Below are positions 6,835 through 63,373 of a stretch of 64,000 bases of DNA, in pieces; within the stretch, counting starts at the first letter, position 1, and every line of letters starts with the position of its first letter. Where the stretch lies: positions 8,420,198 to 8,484,197 of the forward strand of contig CM000151.3 of assembly GCA_000004695.1 (NCBI GenBank), in the 5' to 3' direction. The notes under the pieces were generated by a model. That model ran no database searches. It was not told the origin of the DNA and saw only the letters and a list, made by a program, of their open reading frames with translations. A program made the position numbers and the translations under genes. The DNA is from Dictyostelium discoideum (lineage: Eukaryota).

Positions 6835-9228
6835 ATGAGCAATAGTTTTTTGCATTGTAAAAAATCAAATGATGAATTTGCAGAGAATTTAATATGGAGA
6901 AGGAATTTATTGACAGTATTTGAAAAGTTGGGAGAAAAAGATCAAATAGCTCATGCAATGCAATATTTGATATCACAAGTTCATGGATTATTAAATTTAA
7001 ATCAATTACAATTTTTTATGGATTGTATTGTTGAAAGTAGTGAGGATTTTAATAATATTGGTAAGAGGGAAGTTATAAAATTATTAGGTACAATGGTATC
7101 AATATTTAGGAATAGATTATCATCATATCTCAATAAGATCATTTCATTCATAATTAGAAGATTAAGTGAACCAACATCATCAGGATTATTAGAGATAACA
7201 TTGGAAACATTGGGTATAACTTGTAATAACATTATCATTGAACAAAAACATTTATTTAAAACCAATGGTGGTATTGGAAGTTGTAATGTAAATATCAATG
7301 GAAGCAATCTATCCAATAGTCTAAGTAGTAACCCAACTCAACAACAACAGCAACAACAATTATCAATTTCAACTAGTCTAATCGATGTTTATTTAAATCC
7401 AATATTAATGATAATCAATCTACCAAGTAGACATATTCAATGTGCTTCCATTCTGGCCATTCAAAAAGTGATTGAAAATATTTATGATATAAATAACTTA
7501 CTTTGTCCACAATTACCAAAGATTTTAAATCAACTTTTGAAAAAGTTAATAAATGTTCAATTACCATCATCATCATCGGCTTCAATGTCTTCATTTTCAA
7601 CTCAGTATTGTGTACCACATATACTTTCAACCATTTCAAGTTTATTTAAAATGGTTGGATCAAATTATTTCATTTATCATAATTCTCTATCTCATTCTTT
7701 AATTGATCAAATCAATGGTACTCTAATTTCAAATTCAATAAGAACTTTAACTTCAAATGATTGGACTGCTAGAAATTCTTCTGCAACTTTATTACAAACT
7801 ATTGTAGATATTCTTCCAAAATCATTTTATTTTAATAGGATAAATGATATTCTAAAATCTTTAAATGATTGTAAATATGATAAAGTATGTTTTTTAAATT
7901 TCTTTATTTAAATAAATTAAAATAAAATATATTAACCCCCTTTTTTTGTTTTTTTTAAAAAAAAAAAAAAGATAAAATCAATTAGAGATAGTGTAAATAA
8001 ATCAATTCAATTATATAATGAATCACTTTTAAATAATACAAATACAAATAATAATAATAATAATAATTTAGATAGTAGTAATAATAATCATAATAATAAT
8101 AATATAAACGAATCAAATAATAATTTTTATAATCAGCATAATCCACCAATTAATATTGTTAGTAATATACCGACAACTCCACCATTTATAGAAGCTAAAT
8201 TTAATAAACAATTTCAACAGCAACAGCAACAACAAAATCAATCAATTTATAATTCACCTTTATTAAAGTCACCACGTAAGACTTCACCAACTACACCATC
8301 AACGCCAACATCAACACCACCAATTCATTCACAACCAAGTCCATATAAAAAGTATACACCATTATCATCACCATCATTAAGTAGTAAGAAAATTACATCT
8401 TATTCTTCAATGTCATTATCATCTTCATCCTCTCAATCATCCAATAGTGGTAGTTTTAATATATCAAATACTACCACTACAAACCAATTACCATCGGCTT
8501 TTAAAACGAGTCCAACACCATCTTATTCAAATTCACCAATTTTAAAACCAACTACAACTTCAATTAATTTAAATACCACTTCTAAAATACCAACAAACTT
8601 TAAAGAATTTAATATATCTTCCTCTTCATCACTTTCTACTTCGCCTTTAATATTTTCAAATAATAAACAAGAATTACATCAACAACATCAACATCAACAT
8701 CAACAACATCAACAACAAATTGAACAAAAACAAAAACATCATTATCGGTACACAGATGAAGAAATAATTCATATGGTTGATAATAATAATAATGAGAACG
8801 AAAATGAAGATAATAATAATAATAATGATAAAAGTGATAATGAAGATAATAATAATAATCAAGATGAAACAAATATTTTAACTTTATCATCACTTGTGAA
8901 ATCACCAAATCCAAAACCAATAATATTTTCACCTTCAAAATCAACAAATAATACTACAAATAATTCATCATCGTCATCATCATCATCATCAACAACTACA
9001 ACAACCTCATCATCACCAAAATTAAATATAAAACCAAAAGAAACTATTACAACTACAACTACAATTACAACTGAAGAGAATGAAACATTGAAATTAATTC
9101 ACGAAATGATGAATTCAATGAACGATTTTATGATTGAAACTCGTGATAATATTGATCAAATTAAAAAAAGGTTAGGCGTTGTTGAATCTTCAGTTTTAAC
9201 ACTTCAAAAATATTATTTAACAAAATGA
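6835..9228 (+). CDS. Hypothetical HEAT/TOG-like repeat protein with Ser/Thr/Asn-rich middle and C-terminal coiled coil
   Basis: Exon 1 is 6835..7884 and exon 2 is 7972..9228; both junctions are phase 0. Donor GTATGT at 7885, acceptor AG at 7970-7971. The N-terminal ~350 aa shows repeated amphipathic helix pairs (IAHAMQYLISQVHGLL, ILAIQKVIENIY, TLLQTIVDILPKSFYF) typical of HEAT/TOG arrays. The C-terminus ...LKLIHEMMNSMNDFMIETRDNIDQIKKRLGVVESSVLTLQKYYLTK is coiled coil. A candidate 5' mini-exon at 6587..6615 would splice in frame to 6846; see findings. Confidence 0.55.
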
Positions 9229-9322
9229 TGATAATAATATAACAATAAACTTTATTTTATTTGAATTATTTTTAAAAAAAAAAAAAAAAATGAAAAATGA
9301 TAATAATAAATTTAAAATTATT

Positions 9323-11209: not shown

Positions 11210-11486
11210 TATTATTTTAATTTATTATTATTATTATTATTTTAATTTTTTTTAAAATTTTTTTTTTATTAAAAATAATAGAATTAGATATTTAAAAAAA
11301 AAAAAAAAAAAAAAAATGAAAAAAATGAAAATAATTAAAAAGCCGAGTAACGGTATGATTAAAAAAAAAAAAAAAAGCAAAAAAATTGAAATTAATAAAA
11401 AAAAACGAAAAAAAAAAAATCATATAAAAAAAAGTTCAAAATTTTTTTTTTTTTTTTTATTTTTCAGAAATCATCACACATAAAAA

Positions 11487-13989: not shown

Positions 13990-19123
<5,134 letters not shown>

Positions 19124-43708: not shown

Positions 43709-45343
43709 ATGAGTCAGTTCATGATTAGATATCAAATTATAAACCTTTCAAAGGTTTTCAATTCACCAAAATCATTAAAGTATTTTTTTTTTTTTTTTTA
43801 AGGGTTGTTTTTAGAATTCTTTTCAATGGATGAATACTAATTTTTTTAAAAAAAAAAAAGTTTTATTAAAAGATATACAACATCAACAGCATCAACAACA
43901 ACAACAACAACAAATGATGATTCAAATTGGATATCAACACCAAATATTACAGTATGTGGTATTGGTGGTGGTGGTTGTAATAGTGTTAATAATATGATTA
44001 ATAAAGAATTATATGGAATTGATTTTGTAGTTGCCAATACTGATGCACAAGCATTGGCAATATCATGTAGTAGAAAGATGGTACAATTAGGAAAGACATT
44101 AACAAGAGGATTAGGAGCAGGAGCAGTACCAGAAGTTGGAAAGAAAGCAACTGAAGAATCAATTGAAGAATTAATGAATCAAATTGGTGATACACAAATG
44201 TTATTTGTCACAGCTGGTATGGGTGGTGGTACAGGTACAGGTGGAGCAGCAGTTATTGCATCAGCAGCAAAAGCCAAAGGTATTTTAACTGTTGGTATTG
44301 TAACCAAACCATTTCATTTCGAAGGTAAACATAGAATGAAATTGGCAGAACAAGGTTTGATAGAGTTGGAGAAATCAGTCGATAGTTTAATCGTTATTCC
44401 AAATGAGAAATTAATGGAACAATCACAAGAACTCTATATTGGAAATGCTTTCCAAATGGTTGATGATGTACTTTACAATAGTATTCGTGGTATCTCTGAT
44501 ATTTTAGTTAAACCAGGTTTAATTAATTTAGATTTCGCCGATGTTAGATCGATCATGTGTAATAGTGGTAAAGCATTGATGGGTGTTGGAGAAGGTGAAG
44601 GTAAAGGTCGTGATGCTATCGCAGCCAATATAGCCTTAAATAATCCATTACTCGAGAATATTAATATCTCTGGTGCAAAAGGTGTCCTTTTAAATATTGC
44701 TGGTAGTGACTTAAAATTACAAGAAGTTGATCATATCGTTAGTTTGGTTAGTAGTAAAGTTGATCCTTCTGCTAATATCATCTTTGGTTCAACTTTTGAT
44801 CAACAATTAGAAGGTAAAATTAGAGTAACTTTAATTGTTACCGGTATGGATCAATTAATACAACAACAACAACAACAACAAAAACAAACTAAAATAGAAT
44901 CTCAAGTAGAACAAAAATTACATTCAACAACAATTGTAGATCAAGAATTAAAACCAATTGAACCACAAAAATCAATAATTATAGAAGAAGAACAAGAAGA
45001 ACAACAACAACCAAAACCAATAATTCCTGGTATTTTTGTTGAACAAGAACTATTAACCACTACCACCACTGCTAATATCACACCATCACAACAAAAACAA
45101 GAATCTTTAACTCAAAATAATATATTCTCACCACCACAACAACAACAACAACAACCATCAATTAATTTACAACCAAATTACCAACAATTATATCAACAAT
45201 TATACCAACAACAACAACAACAACTACAACAACAACAACCAATAAGTTTTTTGAAAAGATTATCAAACCTTTTCTTTACAAATGGTAATAATAATAAACC
45301 TTACAATAATAATAAAAATACTCCTGGTTCAAATTATGAATAA
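43709..45343 (+). CDS. fszA: FtsZ (mitochondrial division protein)
   Basis: Exon 1 is 43709..43779 (MSQFMIRYQIINLSKVFNSPKSL, presequence-like; donor GTATTT, phase 2) and exon 2 is 43861..45343. GTP-binding N-domain ...VCGIGGGGCNSVNNM... The tubulin/FtsZ signature GGGTGTG lies in FVTAGMGGGTGTGGAAVIA. The Q-rich C-terminal extension suggests the FszA rather than FszB paralog. Confidence 0.8.
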
Positions 45344-51517: not shown

Positions 51518-51550
51518 AATTATTAATTATTTTTAATTTTCTCTAATAGA

Positions 51551-51614
<64 letters not shown>

Positions 51615-53033
51615 CTAAACTTACATTTCCTTTGTTTTCATTTTGAGCAATTGCTAATTGTGAAATTATAAAATGTAACATTTTATCAATTTTCTCTAAG
51701 AATTCAATTTTGAGAGGGGCATTTTTATCATGACCAGCATCATCTACTGCTTTAATATGTAAGAAACCAAATTGATATTTATCATTGTCAACATCCAATA
51801 TATTCTTTAATAAGGTATCAGCTTTTGATTGTAAGTTTGTATGATAATCACCTGTACCACCTTCAGATTCAATCACATCAATCTTTACAGACATACCTAA
51901 ACCAGCGATAATACATGTTGGAGCAATCATAAATGCATTCATTCCATACTTTTGTTTAAAGGTTGGTGCCTCAACACAAACACCACAACCACGTAATAAT
52001 ACAACATTTGCAACTGGTAAACCTTTTTCTCTTCTCTCTATATTAATTGGATGATTTTCTAATGCTTTTTGAATTTCATCTGATAATTCATTTACAATCT
52101 ATAAATTAATAACAGTTAATAATAATTAAATAAAAAATTATTATTAATCATTTTTTATTATTTATTATTTATTATTTATTATTTATTTATTATTATTATT
52201 ATTTTTTATTTGTTATTAAAAATAATTAATATATAATATATAAAATTTAAAATTAAAAAAAATATAAAAACTTACTTTACTTGTTAAAATGGAATCATGA
52301 GAATTAATATCTAAAGGTGTTGCTTTTAATAATGGTAAATTATCTTTTAATGGATCAGTACCAGTGATTGAATCAGTAAGATTTGGACCTCTAACTCTTA
52401 CACCACATCTATGTTCAGTTGCATATTTTACATCTACTCTATAATTTGGAAATGATGGTAATTTAATACCTGTTAAATAATCACATAATGTTGGTCCAAG
52501 ATGTTCAAAATTTCTATCTGCTCTTCTTAAAATAACAATTCCACTTGATTTATCTATTGTTGCAAAATTTGACTAAAAAATAAATTATTAAATTAAAAAA
52601 AATATAAATTAATATAAAATATAAATTGGTATCAAAATTTAAAATAAATAAAATAAAATATATTAAAAAAAAAATAAAAAAAATAAAAAAAAAAAAAAAA
52701 TACTTTAAAAGCAATATCACCTGGTTGCATATCTAAACCAGCACCCATTGATTCAAATGCACCTCTACCTCTATAATATTTTCTTGGATCATAACCTAAA
52801 ATTGAAAGATGTGCTGTATCACTACCACATGCAAATCCTGGTTCAACTGGATCCATTACACCATTTATACCACTTGATGACATTGCATCCATTGTTGGCG
52901 TATTTGCAACTTGTAATGTGGTTTTTCTTTCATATTGAGGTATTGATGTATCTGCAATACCATCAACCATAACAAATACCATTTTATTATTGTTACCCAT
53001 TTTCTTTCTTTTTTTTTTATTGAAACAATCCAC
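51201..53033 (-). CDS. 2,3-bisphosphoglycerate-independent phosphoglycerate mutase, archaeal type (ApgM family metalloenzyme)
   Basis: Four exons on the minus strand: 52704..53033 (start may be the internal ATG at 53000; donor GTATTT), 52276..52572 (donor GTAAGT), 51625..52098 (donor GTAAGT), and 51201..51482; all junctions are phase 0. Motifs MVFVMVDGIAD, GSDTAHLSILGYDP, CGVRVRGPNLTD and ...TGDHSTPVLTGDHSYEPVPF are present. Confidence 0.7.
51552..51612. repeat. (TA)n microsatellite in intron 3 of the phosphoglycerate mutase gene
   Basis: Perfect tatata run of about 30 units. Confidence 0.9.
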
Positions 53034-55809
53034 AAGATAAAAAAAAAAAAAAAAAAAAATAAAAAAAAAAAAAAAATTAATTTTTCGTGCGAGAAATTAA
53101 TTTTCAAACTATTTGTGCATAAAATTATTTAAAATTTGTTTTAATTTAAAAAAAAATAATAAAAAAATAACTTTTTCTTTTTTAATCAAATTTTAAATTG
53201 TTTACTTAATCGCACACTTTTCCTATTTTGAATTTTTAAACCTCAAGGTTATCATAATAATATAAAAAATCAAGCAAAAATTTGGAAATTGTTTTTTTTT
53301 TATTATAATAAAGGTTAGTTCATTTGAACAGTTTTGTTTACTAAAAAAATTATTGTTAAAAAAAATTATTGCTAAAAAAAAAATAAAAATAAAATTATAA
53401 AAATAAAAAAATAAAAAATTATAATTTTCGAAGTTCATAGATATTTTGGTATGACAGGACAAACTTGTAAAAATTAAAAAAATTTGGGTGAAAAAAAAAA
53501 TATCAAATAAATTTTCTTTTTTTTTTTTTTTTTAATTTTATTTTTAGTAATCAAAAGATCTTTTAATCGATTTGGAGTTATAAAAAATGAATAATGTTAC
53601 AATTAATTTAGTTTTATTTACTATTTTTTTTTTTAAAAGATTTAAAAAAAAAATTTCCCCCTATTTTTAATATTGTTTTTTTAAAAGATTTAAAAAAAAA
53701 AACTCCCCTATTTTTAATATTATTTTGTTAAAAGATTTAAAAAAAAAACTTTTTTACTTTTTTTATTTTATTATTAATATTTTGAAACCAAAAAAATAAA
53801 AAATTAATTTAAAAATAATAAATTTTTGATTTTTTGGTTTAGTTCTATTAACGTCATACTTATAATTATCTGTTCGTATGTTTATTTTAAAGATTCGAAT
53901 CTTTAATTCTTGCTATCCTTTTAACATCTTTCACTTAAAAATAAATACATTGGACCTTTCTGTGAATAATTGAATTAATTCTGAAAAAAAAAAGTTATTT
54001 TGAAAAAGATCGAGTTATCCCGGAAAAGATCAATCTTTTCGCTAAAAATTTTTCATTGGCCATATTATTTTTTTTTTTTAATTTTTTTCATTTATTCACA
54101 ATTAAAATAAAAAATATAAAAATAAATAAATAAAATAAATAGTATGATTGACAAAAAAAATCAAAAATACCCCGGTAGGATTTATTTTTTATATGTAGTT
54201 TTTTTTTTTTGAAGTTCCTTTTTTTTTTTTGAAGTTCATTTTTTTTTATATTTTCTTTATTTCTCTATAAATACAACCAAATTTAATTCTACGATAGGTC
54301 TTAACAAATATTGTTTAATATTATTTAAAATTTTTGTTTTAAATAATGTGTTTTATTAAAAAAAAAAAAAAACATGTGAAAAGTGAAAAATTTTTCAAAA
54401 AAAAATAAACTTTTTTCGAAATAACTGAATTTATTCCGGGATAACTCGATCTTTTTTAAAATATGCTGAGTTAATTATAATTAATTCAATTATCCACTGA
54501 TAGGTCCATTATCATTTTTGTTAGAGACTCAAAACTAATTTAATTTTAAAGTTAGTATGAGCCCCAACAACTTTACAAATTTGCGCGTCTCCATGTAAAA
54601 ATATTTCATTTAATTTTAATTTTTATTTTTTAATTTTTTATTTTTTAAGTCGAAAAATAAAAAATTAAATTAAATTAAAATTTAAAAATAATAAAAATTC
54701 TGATTTTCGGTTTAGTTTCATAACGACCTTACTTTAATATTATGTATGTTTATTTTAAGATACGAGTCTTTCTCTATTTCTATCCCTAACAATATAAATA
54801 ATAACGATTGATGAAGATTGATGAAGATTGATGAAGATTGATGAAGATTGATGAAGATTGATGTAGATTGATATAGGATTAGATAGATTGGAATAGTGCC
54901 AATGACTTTTATTTTAACATAAGATGGAAATATTAAATAAATAATTAGATACAATCTTTATATAATTGCCTATACAATGACACCTCATGATGAAGAAGTC
55001 GACTCTTCAGATTAGAGGAATAACAGTAGTATTTAAAACAAAATAAAAATGCATTACAATGGCCCTTCTGTTTGCAAGATTAACGCTGTACTGCTTAGGC
55101 GGTACAACGACACTTCCTACTCACATTGTAAACATGCATCTTTTATAAAGTAATATAAAATAAGATTGTATCAATTAATTTAATAATATTCTAAATATAA
55201 ACAATGACACCTCAAACAGAGGAATAACTGTGTTGTTATATAAAAACAATGACACCTCAAACAGAGGAATAACTGTTATATAAAAGCAATGACACCTCAA
55301 ACAGAGGAATAACGGTATTGTAATAATATTAAGACACCACAATATATAATATTAGTGGAATAACAGTTAAACAAAGACACCACAATATAAATTATTAGTG
55401 GAATAACAATTAAACAAAGACACCACAGTATAAATTATTAGTGGAATAACAGTTAAACAAAGACACCACAATATAAATTATTAGTGGAATAACAGTTAAA
55501 CAAAGACACCACAGTATAAATTATTAGTGGAATAACAGTTATATAGATGTATTATTAATAAAAATAATTTAAGATAATATTTATTATCAATCAAATAAAG
55601 ACACCACAATAAAAATATATTAGTGGGATAACAGTTATAATATATTAATAATAATATCAATTATTTAATTTTAAAAATTAAAATAAATAAATTAAATAAA
55701 TTAAATTAATTTAATTAAATAAATTAAATAAATTAAATTAAATATATTAAATTAAATTAAATAAATTAAATTATATAATTTAAAATTTAAAATAAATTGT
55801 TGGTGAAAG

Positions 55810-56764
55810 TAATGACATCAACTACTACTCTTTCAAAGATAGCCATCCGTAAAGCCAAAGTGTCTTCCACCGCCAAATGTGCCGCTGAAGTGACCTCTGC
55901 CTCCGATGAAGCTATTTCTGTCCAAGCCAAACCAAAAAAGACCCTTCATCCCACTGAAGACGATGATTAACTTTATACTACCGAAAGCACGGACCTATCC
56001 GAGGCTGAAGTCAGAGAGAGAGCCTAAGAATTCAAAGACAACTCCATTGAAGCTAAAACCATTGATGCTTTTAAAAAATGATACCACTGCCTTCATCTTC
56101 ATGAATCTCTTTACCATCTACTTCCCCCTGTCTCCTCCCCCCAACCCAACCTTGATGACCATTATGGACAATGTACTACATCAAATGAATTATTCCATTT
56201 GCTTCAACCTGACCAATATGAATCAGTGAAGAACAACGATAATTTGAAGGTGTAACTTTGAGGAAGCTTATCCACCGTAACTTTAGACCCAAGACTTTGG
56301 TTCCCGTCAAAACTGACTACGAAGCTGCTAAAATTAAAGTGGTCTAAGCCATTAGCCATTGTAACAACCACTCAGCCTAATATGTTAAAAAAAACATCGA
56401 AGCAAATATGAGTTACAACAATGTAATTAATCCGATGTATCTCATCCATGGTACTGCTGATGTTCAATTAGATTATCTAAGATCAATTTTAGATAATAAT
56501 ATCCTTGCTTTGTTAAAGATGGTTATACCAGACTGGTTACAAACTGATGTTGCAATCAAGCTCAACCCTCAAACCGATATCACCGAGTGTCGTGAAGCTA
56601 TCACCGAGTTGGTTCTTTTCAATACTGATAAGTTTTCTAGAAGAAGATCTTCCGATTCGGCATCGAATACTGATGAGAAGTTTCCAATGAAAAATAATCA
56701 TGCTGTTCCAAATCATAACTCTCAAAGCAGGAATCACTTAGAGCTGAAATATAACCAAAGGTAA
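55810..56764 (+). pseudogene. Degenerate copy of the repeat-unit ORF (multiple stops and frameshifts)
   Basis: The translation MTSTTTLSKIAIRKAKVSSTAKCAAEVTSASDEA... is interrupted by stops. It resumes in other frames (ORF 56408..56764 ...NPMYLIHGTADVQLDYLRSILDNNILALLKMVIPDWLQTDVAIKLNPQTDITECREAITELV...) that are homologous to copy 2. Confidence 0.6.
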
Positions 56765-58185
56765 AAGATAATAAAATGGTAAATATCAACAAGATAAGAA
56801 ACAGTTACATTGTTTATCGTCATAGCAAAGGCTATTGTCTCAATTGTAGTCGTTCAAATTACTCTACATCTTTATGTAATGCCGATACTGTCAAGGTCAA
56901 AGTCAATCCATCAAGTCCATAAGCCAAAAAGCAACAATGACTCGATGAAGGTGATGAGTACAAGTCTAAGATTTTAAATAAAAATTATAAAATTTCACAA
57001 TATCATCACCCCGAGAAAATGGATGGTAAAGAGATTCATGAAGATGAGAGCAGTGGCAGCATTTTTTTAAAGCATCAATGGTTTTAGCTTCAATGGAGTT
57101 GTCTTTGACTTCTTTGGCTCTTTCTACCTGACTTCGAGTTTGGATATGTCAGTTCTTACAGTTGTATAAATTTCTTCATCGTCTCCAATGGGATGAAGAG
57201 TCTTTTTTGATTTCACTTGAACTTGGGTAGCATCATCCGAGGCGAATGCACTTCAGCAGCACATTTGGTGGTGGAAGACACTTTGGCTTTACGAATGGCT
57301 TTTTTTGAAAGAGTAGTTGTTCTAGACTCAAAACTAAATTAATTTAAAGTTAGTATGAGCTCAACAACGTAACAAATTCGCGCATCTCCATGTAAAAATA
57401 TTTCATTTAATTTTAATTTTTTATTTTTTCATTTGAAAAATAAAAAATTAAATTAAATAAAATAAAATTAAATTAAAATTTAAAAAAATAATAAAAATTC
57501 TGATTTTCGGTTTAGTTTTCATAACGCCCTTACTTTTAATTATCTCTTTTATATATGTTTACTTTTATGATATTAGTCTTTCACTCTTTCTATCCTTCAT
57601 ATTAAAAAACATTACTTTAAAGATTGGACAGTTTGATTAAAGATTGAACAAATGTGACAATGGATTGAAGATTAGTGTGAGTGAATTTTACACTTTTTTT
57701 TCTAATTTTAACATAAAACAAATACATTAAAACAAATAATTAGATACAATCCTTATATTTCGTATACAATGGCACCTCATGATGAAGAAGTCGACTCTTC
57801 AGATTAGAGGAATAACAGTAGTATTTAAACAAAATAAAAATGCATTACAATGGCCCTTCAGTTTGCAAGATTAACGCTGTACTGCTTAGGCGGTACAACG
57901 ACACTTCTTACTCACATTATAAACATGCATCTTTTATAAAGTAATATAAAATAAGATTGTATCAATTAATTTAATAATAATGCTCAAATACAAAGACACC
58001 ACAATATAAATTATTAGTGGAATAACAGTTAACATATATTAATACTTATATTAATTATTTAATTAAAAATTAAATTAAATTAAATTAAATAAATTAAATT
58101 AAATTATAAAATTAAATTATAAAAATTAAATTATAAAATTAAATTATATTTAATAAATTTTATATATAATTGTTGGTGAAAGTCA

Positions 58186-59227
58186 TGTCATCAACTACTA
58201 CTCCTTCAAAGAAAGCCATCCGTAAAGCCAAAGTGTCTTCCACCGCCAAACGTGCCGCTGAAGTGACAACCGCCTCCGATGATGCTATTACTGTTCAAGT
58301 AAAATCAAAAAAGACTCTTCGTCCCACTGAAGTCGATGATGAAATTTATTCAACTGAAAGCACTGATGTATCCGACGTCGAAGTCAGAGAGAAAGTGCCA
58401 AAGAAATCAAAGACCAATTCCATTGAAGCTAAAACCATTGACGCTTTAAAAAATGCTGCCACTGCTGTCATCTTCATGAATCTCTTTACCATCCACTGCT
58501 CCCAGAATGGTGTTGAACCAACCTTGAAGACCATTATGGACAATGGTGCTGCATCAAATGAATTATTTCAATTGCTTCAACCTACCCACAATGAATCAGT
58601 TAAGAACATTGAAGAAGGTGGAGCATTGAAGAAGCTAATACACCGTAACTTTATATCCAAGACTTTGGTTCCATTCAAAACTGACTACGAAGCTGCCAAC
58701 ACTAAAGTAGTAGAAGCTATTAACCATCGTAACTGCTACTCAGCCCAAGATGTTATAAAAAACATCGAAGCCATTATGAGTTACCACAATGTAATTAATC
58801 CGGTGTATCTAATCCATGGTACTGCTGAAGTTCAATTAGAGTATCTAAGATCAATTTTAGATAATAATATCATTGCTTTGTTAAAGATGGTCGTACCAGA
58901 CTGGTTACAAACTGATTAATCAAACTCAACACTCAAACCGATATCACCGAGTGTCGTGAAGCCTTCACCGAGTTGGTTCTTAACAATGCTGATAAGTTCT
59001 CGAGAAGAAGACCTTCCGATTCCGCATCGAATACTGATGAGAAGTTTCCATTAAAAAAGAATCATGCTACTCCAAATCATAACTCTAATAACAGGAATTC
59101 CTTTGATGCACAAGCTGATAAGATTAGAGCTGCAATATTACCCGAAATAAGAAAAGACTCTAAGGTAGACCTCAAAAAGATAAGAAGCAGCACAGCGGCG
59201 AAAATCAACACTTTAAAGCACCTTTAA
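58186..59227 (+). pseudogene. More intact copy of the repeat-unit ORF, ~350 aa, with one in-frame stop / small deletion at 58917
   Basis: The translation MSSTTTPSKKAIRKAKVSS...VINPVYLIHGTAEVQLEYLRSILDNNIIALLKMVVPDWLQTD stops with TAA where copy 1 reads through. The remainder is ORF 58973..59227 (...ADKFSRRRPSDSASNTDEKFP...KIRAAILPEIRKDSKVDLKKIRSSTAAKINTLKHL*). No RT, integrase, transposase or endonuclease motifs recognised. Confidence 0.55.
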
Positions 59228-59639
59228 ATCCAAGTACTCTTTTTAATATATATTAATAAGTATACTTAATAAGTAATACTTAATAAGCACACTTAATAAG
59301 TATTGTTGTAGGGAATTTTTTTTGAAATTTCGCTTTCTAAACGGCAGTGAATTTTTACACTAAAATACGCTGTTTATGCATGGTGTAAAAATTCACTAAA
59401 TTTTTTTTTTTTATAATTAAATTAAAAAACAATTTATTTAATCAAAAAAATTAAAAACCAATTTTATTCAGTTATTTGCTTGTTTATTTATTTTTTTATA
59501 ACAAAAAAATTTAGTTTGCGCCATTTTTTTTTTTTTTTTTTTTTTTCAAATTATTTTTTTCAATTTTTTTTTTTATCGATTGTTTTCATTTTTGGGGAAT
59601 AAAATAAAATTGTTCGATAAAAAAAAAATTGAAAAAAAT

Positions 59640-59951: not shown

Positions 59952-60650
59952 GTGAATTTAATTACTGAAACAGAAATAATGAATTTCCACTTGTTGTTAC
60001 ATTATCCAATCTATATAAAAAATTGGGGTGCACCAAAATACACTTCAGCTGAAACTTTTGAAGCACAATTATCAAGAATTAAAAATTATTTAAATAATAA
60101 TACAAATAATAGGGATGAACAATATGAAAGGGTTACCAAATTAAACATGGTGAAATTTTTTAATTCAGTAGATAAATTAAAAAGTATTGAGCCTGAAAGT
60201 ACAGCATTAATTATTGGTAACAAAATAAAAAATCCAGATAATATAGATAACATAAAAATTAAATTAGATTCATTATTTCAAAATTATAAAAATATAACTT
60301 TTCACTCATCAATTAAAAATAATAAAGAAATATACAATGTTGGTGATGCAGTTGAAGTTGCATCAGATAATGAACTTTCAGGTAGATGGTCAGGTATTAT
60401 CAATTCAATATCAATGATTGAAATGGGTGATAACATAATAAAACATGCAATATTATTAAATTATTTTGACAAATATGTTGGTGACCAATTTAATAAATAC
60501 CATTTTCTTTCAAATGAATTAAATTATATTACATATGATAATATTCTAAATAATGTTATACCAATTCAAATTGATGATACCAATTACCTTATTATTTACA
60601 AGTGCCACGATAAATTCTCGGCTTCAAAAAATAAAAAATCAAAAAATTAA
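59952..60650 (+). CDS. Hypothetical protein, member A of an inverted-duplicated gene pair
   Basis: 232-aa ORF. Shares the block KEIYNVGD.VEVASDN..SGRWS.II......E...N...H.I...YFDKY.GDQFNKYHFL...I.YDNI.N..IPIQIDD.NYLIIYKCHDKFS.SK with the minus-strand ORF 62870..63373. Confidence 0.5.
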   Translation: MNLITETEIMNFHLLLHYPIYIKNWGAPKYTSAETFEAQLSRIKNYLNNNTNNRDEQYERVTKLNMVKFFNSVDKLKSIEPESTALIIGNKIKNPDNIDNIKIKLDSLFQNYKNITFHSSIKNNKEIYNVGDAVEVASDNELSGRWSGIINSISMIEMGDNIIKHAILLNYFDKYVGDQFNKYHFLSNELNYITYDNILNNVIPIQIDDTNYLIIYKCHDKFSASKNKKSKN

Positions 60651-62869: not shown

Positions 62870-63373
62870 TCATTTTTTTTTTTTACTTATTGAAAATTGG
62901 TCATGGCACTTATAAATTATAAGATAGTTAGACGAATCGATTTGTATTGGTATTAATGTGTTTACTATGTTATCAAATACTATACTTGAAAAGCTTTTTC
63001 TTAAAAAGTGGTACTTATTATTTTGATCACCTGTATCTTTATCAAAGTATTGTATATAAATAGAATGTGCACTTTTTTTATTTTTTAATTCTATTAAACA
63101 AATAGCAATAATTATTGCACTCCATCGTCCAGTTATTGAATTTTCTGAGGCAACTTCAATTCCATCACCAACATTATATATTTCTTTTAAATTTTTAATT
63201 GATTTATGAAATTGAATATTTTCAATGTTTTTGTAATGCAAGTTAATGTCTGATAAAATATTATTTTTTAAATAAATATTTTCATTTTTTTTAATTATTT
63301 GCCCTAAAATTAAATCATTATTGTCATCATCTTTTTCTTTTAGATTGTTAAAATTATCTAAAAATGTTGCCAT
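62870..63373 (-). CDS. Hypothetical protein A-prime (inverted paralog of 59952..60650)
   Basis: 167-aa ORF with the same conserved C-terminal block as member A (...NYLIIYKCHDQFSISKKKK). Confidence 0.5.
   Translation of the reverse strand: MATFLDNFNNLKEKDDDNNDLILGQIIKKNENIYLKNNILSDINLHYKNIENIQFHKSIKNLKEIYNVGDGIEVASENSITGRWSAIIIAICLIELKNKKSAHSIYIQYFDKDTGDQNNKYHFLRKSFSSIVFDNIVNTLIPIQIDSSNYLIIYKCHDQFSISKKKK

Follow-up and report, generated by a model that had tools for sequence, protein, structure and literature searches.

What is the cluster of repeated units that lies at 53,460-59,400 of a 64,000-nt stretch of Dictyostelium discoideum DNA (GenBank assembly GCA_000004695.1, contig CM000151.3, positions 8,420,198 to 8,484,197 of the forward strand; the whole stretch is referred to as the window)? 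The original prediction, made from the letters alone, had described an unclassified transposon-like cluster with two tandem copies and one inverted copy of a unit carrying complex 5' tandem repeats and a motif-less open reading frame (ORF), and had left the choice between a retroelement whose pol is absent, a non-autonomous element and a tandemly duplicated host gene family. The long terminal repeat (LTR), 5' untranslated region (UTR) and gag of the units match Skipper-1 (blastn against a full-length element), one of the families that had been proposed for checking, and the cluster can no longer be regarded as unclassified. We put at roughly nine in ten the probability that 53.75-59.3 kb is a small euchromatic graveyard of fragments of this Ty3/gypsy chromovirus. 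Skipper, for which the source is reportedly Leng et al. 1998, is an already known family, and the cluster is fully explained by fragments of this named retrotransposon.

Skipper-1 as the source of the repeated units

All divergences and 'element' positions given here refer to a full-length relative at L003:8870-15866, which belongs to a comparison set of 11 fetched loci. This element is 6997 bp long and has identical 390-bp direct LTRs at 8870-9259 and 15477-15866, 6607 bp apart, which begin with TG, end with CA (reading TGTTAGAG...CTTTTACA) and are flanked, by direct reading, by a 5-bp TTGTT target duplication. The left LTR is directly followed by CTTTTTTTTTTCTAATTTTAAC, a polypyrimidine tract, with no primer-binding site (PBS), and a polypurine tract is located just 5' of the right LTR. 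In both L001 and L003, pol lies about 80-90 nt 3' of gag and is called at 1376 aa with RVT_1, RNase H and integrase domains; the open frame comprises 1397 codons, shows weaker matches to protease, SH3_Tf2 and chromo domains, and in L003 runs from an alternative GTG start at 11240, while the called gene runs from 11229. The published Dd-Skipper-1 is 6998 bp long with 390-bp LTRs and is present in 60 copies, 2 of them full length; it has two ORFs, for a Gag with a CX2CX4HX4C motif and for a pol with a chromodomain, a polypyrimidine stretch in place of the PBS and no preference for transfer RNA (tRNA) genes (Spaller et al. 2016, PMC5006619). The features of the L003 element match this description completely. 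Elsewhere in the comparison set, the LTRs of the L001 element (8100-9260 and 15476-16670) carry internal duplications, and at L006:1530-2660 an inserted, inverted LTR separates the polypyrimidine tract from the UTR block described below.

Aligned to the reference, the cluster is composed of the following pieces:

53750-53946, plus strand: diverged partial LTR, LTR nt ~106-358, 68-69% identity, E 1e-22 to 1e-24 (blastn)
54519-57012, plus strand: copy 1, element 1 to ~2353 (blastn extent 1-2362, 78%, 2568 columns)
54519-54911, plus strand: copy 1 5' LTR, starting TGTTAGAG; 79% identity, 17.1% divergence over aligned columns
54912-55811, plus strand: copy 1 5' UTR with conserved block (54941-55187), hairpin repeats and (AAATT)n tract
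55812-56940, plus strand: copy 1 gag pseudogene, 14.1% diverged, 5 in-frame stops, 8 indel events
56941-57012, plus strand: copy 1 gag-pol spacer, extending ~14 nt into the reference pol ORF (GTG start, L003:11240), from alignment to L003:11090-11260
57013-57319, minus strand: inverted gag 5' fragment, ~305 bp, gag nt ~8-320, 13.4% diverged from the reference
57318-59190, plus strand: copy 2, element 1-2147, 89-94% identity (blastn)
57318-57692, plus strand: copy 2 5' LTR, TGTT..TTTTACA, complete or nearly so; 92.6% (blastn), 96% on aligned columns against the reference
57693-58184, plus strand: copy 2 5' UTR with polypyrimidine tract, block (57736-57978), one 43-nt unit and (AAATT)n tract
58185-59190, plus strand: copy 2 gag, nt 1-1016 of 1149, 2.1% diverged
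59191-59303, plus strand: terminus of another repeat, ACAGCGGCGAAAATCAACACTTTAAAGCACCTTTAAATCC and then a TACTTAATAAG-type 13-mer x4, replacing the 3' end of copy 2

Judged by these alignments, each of the two direct units is the 5' part of Skipper-1, consisting of the 390-bp LTR, a long repeat-rich 5' UTR and gag. Repeat finders and pairwise alignment showed that the repeat architecture is far beyond chance; the two direct units that had been proposed stand, as do the three blocks shared between them, which are 91-97% identical between the copies. The ~110-bp block corresponds to LTR nt 8-113 (91% identical between copies) and the ~100-bp block to LTR nt ~205-300; its proposed third occurrence is the middle of the diverged LTR at 53750-53946. 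The ~250-bp GC-richer block (54941-55187 and 57736-57978) belongs to the 5' UTR and is 92-97% identical between the copies over two gap-free stretches.

Of the three readings that had been offered for the ORF, the first, a Gag from a retroelement that lacks pol at this place, is correct. Starting at 58185 and repaired across one frameshift, the copy 2 ORF matches 68 proteins, which without exception come from assemblies of D. discoideum or D. cf. discoideum, and the best of them (DDB_G0281533, DDB_G0267368 and DDB_G0267358; 382 aa, 96-97% identical) bear the UniRef name Gag; in L001 and L003, pol adjoins this gag. No significant Pfam family was found in either the copy 2 ORF or the full-length Gag. 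The family Gag ends in a CX2CX4HX4C zinc knuckle, CLNCGKSNHSTSTC, and the ORF can therefore not be called motif-less at the level of the full-length family protein. A profile search with 12 Gag sequences yielded 81 proteins, restricted to D. discoideum and D. cf. discoideum, and no relatives beyond the D. discoideum complex; the Skipper elements that have been described in other dictyostelids are out of reach of sequence searches owing to the rapid evolution of Gag. A tandem host gene family, which would have been indicated by a single genomic locus with orthologs in other dictyostelids, does not agree with 68-81 predicted proteins of which none falls outside the complex. That the cluster is transposon-derived is borne out by a family that has LTRs and whose intact copies carry pol.

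Within the window, pol (ORF2, encoding protease, reverse transcriptase (RT), RNase H, integrase and chromodomain) is absent, so that the window holds family fragments and not a complete member. Both units also lack a 3' LTR and a polypurine tract, the LTRs in the window being 5' only, and because pol, 3' LTR and polypurine tract are all missing, the pieces are incapable of transposition. Homology to the L003 element elsewhere in the window (blastn) amounts to low-complexity noise. Such a composition might also be read as a dedicated gag-only derivative of Skipper, similar to large retrotransposon derivatives (LARD) or terminal-repeat retrotransposons in miniature (TRIM), which was mobilised in trans by full-length Skipper and inserted twice: both units keep LTR, UTR and gag and both are devoid of pol, and the UTR block of copy 1 has remained at 98% while its gag decayed, as if only cis-acting sequences were under selection. 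We regard this as very improbable. The 3' ends are plain breakpoints, unrelated and at different positions (element ~2353, at the edge of pol, in copy 1; 2147, within gag, in copy 2), neither unit has the 3' LTR or polypurine tract of a mobile derivative, and a gag-only element between two LTRs occurs in 0 of the 11 fetched loci.

Of the known elements, Dd-Skipper-1 agrees with the units in the 390-bp TG..CA LTR, the polypyrimidine tract in place of a PBS, the long 5' UTR, the gag sequence and the lack of tRNA association; the units differ from it in comprising no more than its 5' third, in two copies, with interrupted gag and at a euchromatic site. Dd-Skipper-2 and DGLT-A are related Ty3/gypsy elements of the same genome and likewise encode a CCHC Gag. 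Skipper-2, formerly DGLT-B (Spaller et al. 2016, PMC5006619) and termed DGLT-P in Malicki et al. 2017, differs by a 208-bp LTR, a 6.2-kb consensus and a site 8-23 bp downstream of tRNA genes, none of which is found in the window. Each of DGLT-A, Skipper-2, the TRE elements and DIRS-1 fails on several Skipper-1 features. TRE5 and TRE3, non-LTR retrotransposons, are recognized by a fixed distance to tRNA genes, an ORF2 with apurinic/apyrimidinic endonuclease (APE) and RT, and a poly(A) end. They were rejected, as the relatives of the units carry LTRs and gypsy-type pol and as ARAGORN found 0 tRNA or transfer-messenger RNA (tmRNA) genes in the whole 64-kb window, which also disposes of a fixed distance to tRNA genes, a point that had been raised for checking. 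DIRS-1, with inverted terminal repeats and a tyrosine recombinase, was rejected on the direct LTR homology and the Skipper gag of the units; the sole link to a tyrosine-recombinase ORF is the 113-bp foreign terminus at 59191-59303, which is related to a repeat beside such an ORF. A scan of 53-60 kb against Rfam gave no match at E<=1.

Insertions of different age and the gene model DDB_G0277781

The two copies are decaying, as had been proposed, and they do so to different degrees. In copy 1, the 3' end of the LTR is replaced by an array of a 10-mer (GATTGATGAA) x6.7 at 54806-54872, and the junction between LTR and polypyrimidine tract (~16 nt), including the tract, is deleted. The gag of copy 1 is ~84-86% identical to that of the intact element at the nucleotide level, its zinc knuckle is degenerate (CLNCSRSNYSTSLC) and out of frame, and its differences are distributed over the three codon positions as 55/42/61, a near-neutral pattern; equally divergent gag copies from other strains have kept open frames and show an excess at third positions. 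Copy 1 is cut ~70 nt past the gag stop, at element ~2353, where the inverted fragment begins. Copy 1 is an older insertion and copy 2 a young one.

The tandem arrays that had been reported behind the shared blocks are real, but almost all of them are in copy 1, while copy 2 has one 43-mer unit (~57990-58031). The proposed numbers (10-mer x8, 29-mer x3, 43-mer x5) need to be replaced by a 10-mer x6.7, a 40-45-mer x2.8 and a 43-mer x4.9, the latter two being UTR arrays of hairpin repeats at 55195-55314 and 55331-55541, with an extra unit at ~55586-55633. Hairpin repeats of 43 nt are normal in the Skipper UTR, and the reference has four plus one. Thus, the tandem repeats are the hairpin-repeat region of the Skipper 5' UTR, which is variable in copy number, together with a 10-mer expansion private to the copy 1 LTR. 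The UTR units (55195-55541; L003:9560-9830; L005:2500-2830) follow a common pattern, (A)AGACACCNC - loop - GNGGAATAACAG, occur in CCAC/GUGG and CCUC/GAGG versions and range in number from 1 to 9 across copies; in L005, adjacent units have swapped halves (CCUC..GUGG, then CCAC..GAGG), with nested pairing still possible.

In copy 2, a polypyrimidine tract, CTTTTTTTTCTAATTTTAAC (57693-57712), stands directly after ..TTTTACA, where a TGG primer-binding site would be expected, and gag is ~97-98% identical to that of the intact element at the nucleotide level. A single stop had been assigned to its ORF. The alignment instead revealed a deletion of 4 nt near 58916 that shifts the frame, a gap of 5 nt near 58608 that is flanked by substitutions and leaves the frame two codons shorter, and the loss of the last 133 nt, including the zinc knuckle. 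The AX4 gene model DDB_G0277781 (293 aa, hypothetical protein) is encoded exactly by 58185-58790 and 58952-59227, and its last 11 codons and stop derive from the unrelated repeat that begins at 59191. This model is an artefact, in which a truncated Skipper gag has been joined over the frameshift by an invented intron (58791-58951); a literature search for DDB_G0277781 gave no match. It is also through this gene that the locus was assigned to D. discoideum AX4 chromosome 2, which we take to be its chromosome. Many gene models of new assemblies from the D. discoideum complex similarly join Skipper gag to RT, tyrosine-recombinase or hAT fragments (e.g. P0035, P0055, P0066).

An inverted copy of the 5' end of the ORF is present as well, but its position is 57013-57319 (~305 bp by alignment) and not 56960-57300 (~340 bp). 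Across the gag 5' end, identity amounts to 98.7% for copy 2 against the reference, 88.0% for copy 1 against copy 2, and 82.2% and 86.5% for the inverted fragment against copy 1 and copy 2, respectively. Copy 2 is therefore closer to elements elsewhere than to its neighbour, which indicates independent insertions and not, as the wording 'something that has duplicated' had implied, a local duplication. Adjacent units in the same orientation that cover the same part of the element could in principle arise if one Skipper insertion, or a host gene that has a complex promoter, had been locally duplicated in tandem and inverted once in the process. This is the least probable of the alternatives considered, since copy 2 shares 98-99% identity with full-length elements on other chromosomes compared to 83-88% with copy 1, LTR identity between the two copies is only ~79%, the family is multi-copy with pol attached elsewhere, and the profile search, having no relatives outside the D. 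discoideum complex, leaves no host orthologs. The cluster probably arose by repeated Skipper integration into or beside pre-existing Skipper DNA, followed by deletions, and such nesting of Skipper into Skipper would be expected of a chromodomain-bearing integrase. The partial LTR at 53750-53946 is a very old Skipper piece, and the cluster holds at least three to four independent truncated fragments that differ in age.

The cluster occupies an intergenic position between two divergently oriented host genes. Its neighbours are ordinary host genes, not centromeric repeat arrays, and the site is therefore considered euchromatic. Judged by eye from the ORF translations, they include an FtsZ-like gene (43994-45343) and a phosphoglycerate-mutase-like gene (51523-53033, minus strand, divergent); an ORF at 59952-60650 has a paralog on the opposite strand at 62870-63373.

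Several other repeats adjoin the Skipper pieces. Upstream of the old partial LTR, a 47-48-bp unit (TTTTTTTAAAAGATTTAAAAAAAAAACTCCCCTATTTTTAATATTA) is repeated about three times at 53628-53772. At 53947-54511 lies an element of ~565 bp that resembles a miniature inverted-repeat transposable element (MITE), with terminal inverted repeats of ~117 nt (TAATGGACCTTTCTGTGAATAATTGAATTAATT...); 7 bp separate its end from the copy 1 LTR. Over its full length it shows 81% identity to L005:7005-6423, and it shows 90% identity to L008:204-1. Its terminal 150 nt are also found directly upstream of a DDE_Tnp_4 (PIF/Harbinger-type) transposase gene (L005:478-629), and the element is probably a deletion derivative of that DNA transposon. 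The terminus at 59191-59303 is 98% identical to L002:18232-18120 and 86% to L005:5814-5926. The sequence ACAGYGKCSAAAATCRAYACTTTAAAGCAYCTTTAAATCC of this terminus precedes TACTTAATAAG-type 13-mer arrays in three places, and its first 42 nt occur upstream of a tyrosine-recombinase (Phage_integrase) ORF in L009 (L009:1491-1532). The terminus adjoins Skipper gag or RT with a different breakpoint at each locus; the repeat that bears it seems to insert into Skipper repeatedly. Finally, 59338-59392 holds an inverted repeat with perfectly matching 15-bp arms, AGTGAATTTTTACAC-N23-GTGTAAAAATTCACT, and a T run behind it. The arm is similar to the 14 nt that end the Skipper LTR, with 1-2 nt added (AGTGAATTTTACAC), and may be a chance match or a tiny remnant of an LTR end.

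Predicted hairpins and small RNAs

Copy 1 and copy 2 each have a gag 5' end to which the inverted fragment is complementary, and two alternative hairpins are predicted on the plus strand:

55821-57320, plus strand: hairpin A, predicted, formed by the copy 1 gag 5' end and the inverted fragment; gag-homologous stem ~305 bp, loop ~890 nt
57013-58501, plus strand: hairpin B, predicted, formed by the inverted fragment and the copy 2 gag 5' end; stem ~300 bp, loop ~880 nt (copy 2 LTR and UTR)

RNAfold gave 287 long-range pairs and a minimum free energy (MFE) of -574 kcal/mol for hairpin A (55800-57330), the arms of which are 91-92% complementary in blocks and separated by 893 nt, and 272 long-range pairs with an MFE of -579 kcal/mol for hairpin B (57005-58510), with 871 nt between the arms. 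An incomplete Skipper piece on chromosome 2 has been proposed as a source of small RNAs by Hinas et al. 2007 (PMC2175303), who described a possible hairpin with a ~320-bp stem and a ~900-nt loop. Northern blots confirmed the Skipper small RNAs, which were raised during development as well as in the strains drnA- and rrpC-; the number found was only eight, expressed sequence tags (ESTs) were also reported (PMC2175303), and the small RNAs of that study are deposited as GenBank EU113320-EU115992. As chromosome, element and stem and loop dimensions agree, we consider it probable that the locus described here is the chromosome-2 Skipper hairpin of Hinas et al. The two have in common a partial Skipper with an inverted duplication on chromosome 2, a stem of ~300-320 bp and a loop of ~890-900 nt. 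Protein searches identified DDB_G0277781 as the only chromosome-2 match among the AX4 Gag-like proteins, and the 3' arm of hairpin B falls within this annotated gene model; the locus differs in that the window offers two alternative hairpins with a common middle arm. From this geometry and the published experiments, it may be proposed that read-through transcription over gag and the inverted gag fragment would give rise to a hairpin RNA with a ~300-bp stem and a ~890-nt loop, which would then be diced into 21-nt Skipper small RNAs. These hairpin-derived small RNAs, the one functional peculiarity proposed for the locus, are already published.

Some points weigh against the picture of a euchromatic, nested Skipper graveyard that harbours the published hairpin. 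Skipper-1 has been described as mostly centromeric, whereas this locus is euchromatic, and the history of nested insertions is reconstructed from pieces that have no 3' ends and hence no readable target-site duplications. The identity with the locus of Hinas et al. is drawn solely from the chromosome, the element type and the dimensions of stem and loop, 17 other Skipper fragments are located in centromeric regions of chromosome 2 (PMC2665215), and hairpins A and B would fit equally well as the precursor.

It might further be speculated that the arrangement is not a neutral wreck but serves the host as a small-RNA trap, retained because selection favours the silencing of Skipper, in analogy to piRNA (PIWI-interacting RNA) clusters or to plant inverted-repeat loci for small interfering RNAs (siRNAs). 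The hairpin geometry would allow for this, and Skipper small RNAs from a partial chromosome-2 fragment respond to mutations in RNA interference (RNAi) components (PMC2175303). As in the plant loci and the Drosophila piRNA clusters, dead nested transposon fragments might be transcribed into antisense or hairpin RNA directed against an active family. The differences are that the locus measures ~3 kb, that it would involve Dicer- and RNA-dependent RNA polymerase (RdRP)-dependent 21-nt RNA in an amoeba, and that no sign of selection is seen: the decaying arms have a complementarity of just 82-87%. Given also that Hinas et al. found no more than eight such small RNAs, we regard selective maintenance as unlikely.

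A conserved and possibly structured block in the Skipper 5' UTR

The block of 244 nt (L003:9305-9548; 54941-55187 and 57736-57978 in the window) is the best-conserved non-coding part of Skipper. Between copy 1 and the reference, divergence is 1.6% (4/244) in the block, 14.1% in gag and 17.1% in the LTR (Fisher p = 3e-10 for block against gag). The copies in L007, L008, L006 and L010 diverge from the reference by 5.3-7.9% in the block and 13-14% in gag (p 0.0002 to 0.014), and by 15-20% in the LTR, the latter for L007, L008 and L006; in all of the diverged copies examined, the block has changed less than gag and the LTR. Along copy 1, divergence is heterogeneous, and therefore no claim of selection in situ at this locus is made. 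An anomalous preservation of the block in situ was accordingly dismissed, as a slowly evolving block in a moderately old insertion suffices. A gene-conversion tract from copy 2 is likewise an unlikely source of the 98% identity of the copy 1 block, since the private changes of copy 2 are missing in copy 1.

The whole UTR folds much better than its shuffles (z = -5.8), and for the block alone, z lies at about -2.9 to -3.3 whichever strand is folded. Eight distinct sequences retain a core hairpin, GUACUGC-UUAG-GCGGUAC, despite A-U to C-G changes, and a duplicated copy retains it despite U-A to C-G changes. The G-U pairs of this hairpin fit the sense strand only and would be mismatches on the antisense strand. 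The outer stem AUGCAU/AUGCAU becomes AUACAU/AUGUAU in L007 (G-C to A-U); in the ACTFIZ copies it may, by direct reading, be replaced by UUAAUU/AAUUAA, where RNAalifold shows no pairing. Formal covariation is weak, with 2 pairs that have changes on both sides among 8 related sequences and a covariation score that was reached by 9 of 500 shuffles. It might thus be tentatively suggested that the block, together with the downstream GACACCNC..GNGGAATAAC hairpin repeats, forms a conserved cis-acting structured RNA of the sense transcript. Such an RNA may have a role in packaging, in dimerisation or in priming without a PBS. Two other candidates were rejected. The invariant TGGCCCTTCTG as a displaced tRNA primer-binding site would lie ~160 nt past the LTR end, and a PBS must abut U5. 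As for a conserved upstream ORF (MALLFARLTL..) within the block, an indel of 1 nt shifts its frame in both L006 and L010, and there is no preference for synonymous changes.

For annotation, the locus demonstrates that a seemingly unclassified element resolves to a textbook Dictyostelium retrotransposon and that DDB_G0277781 is to be flagged as a pseudogene model on a truncated Skipper gag; it would also represent a compact case of nested Skipper insertions outside the centromere. The structured block is a lead, not a finding, and the only one that is potentially new. How reverse transcription of Skipper is primed in the absence of a PBS is an open question in Spaller et al. 2016 (PMC5006619), and the block, if indeed structured, could bear on this process.

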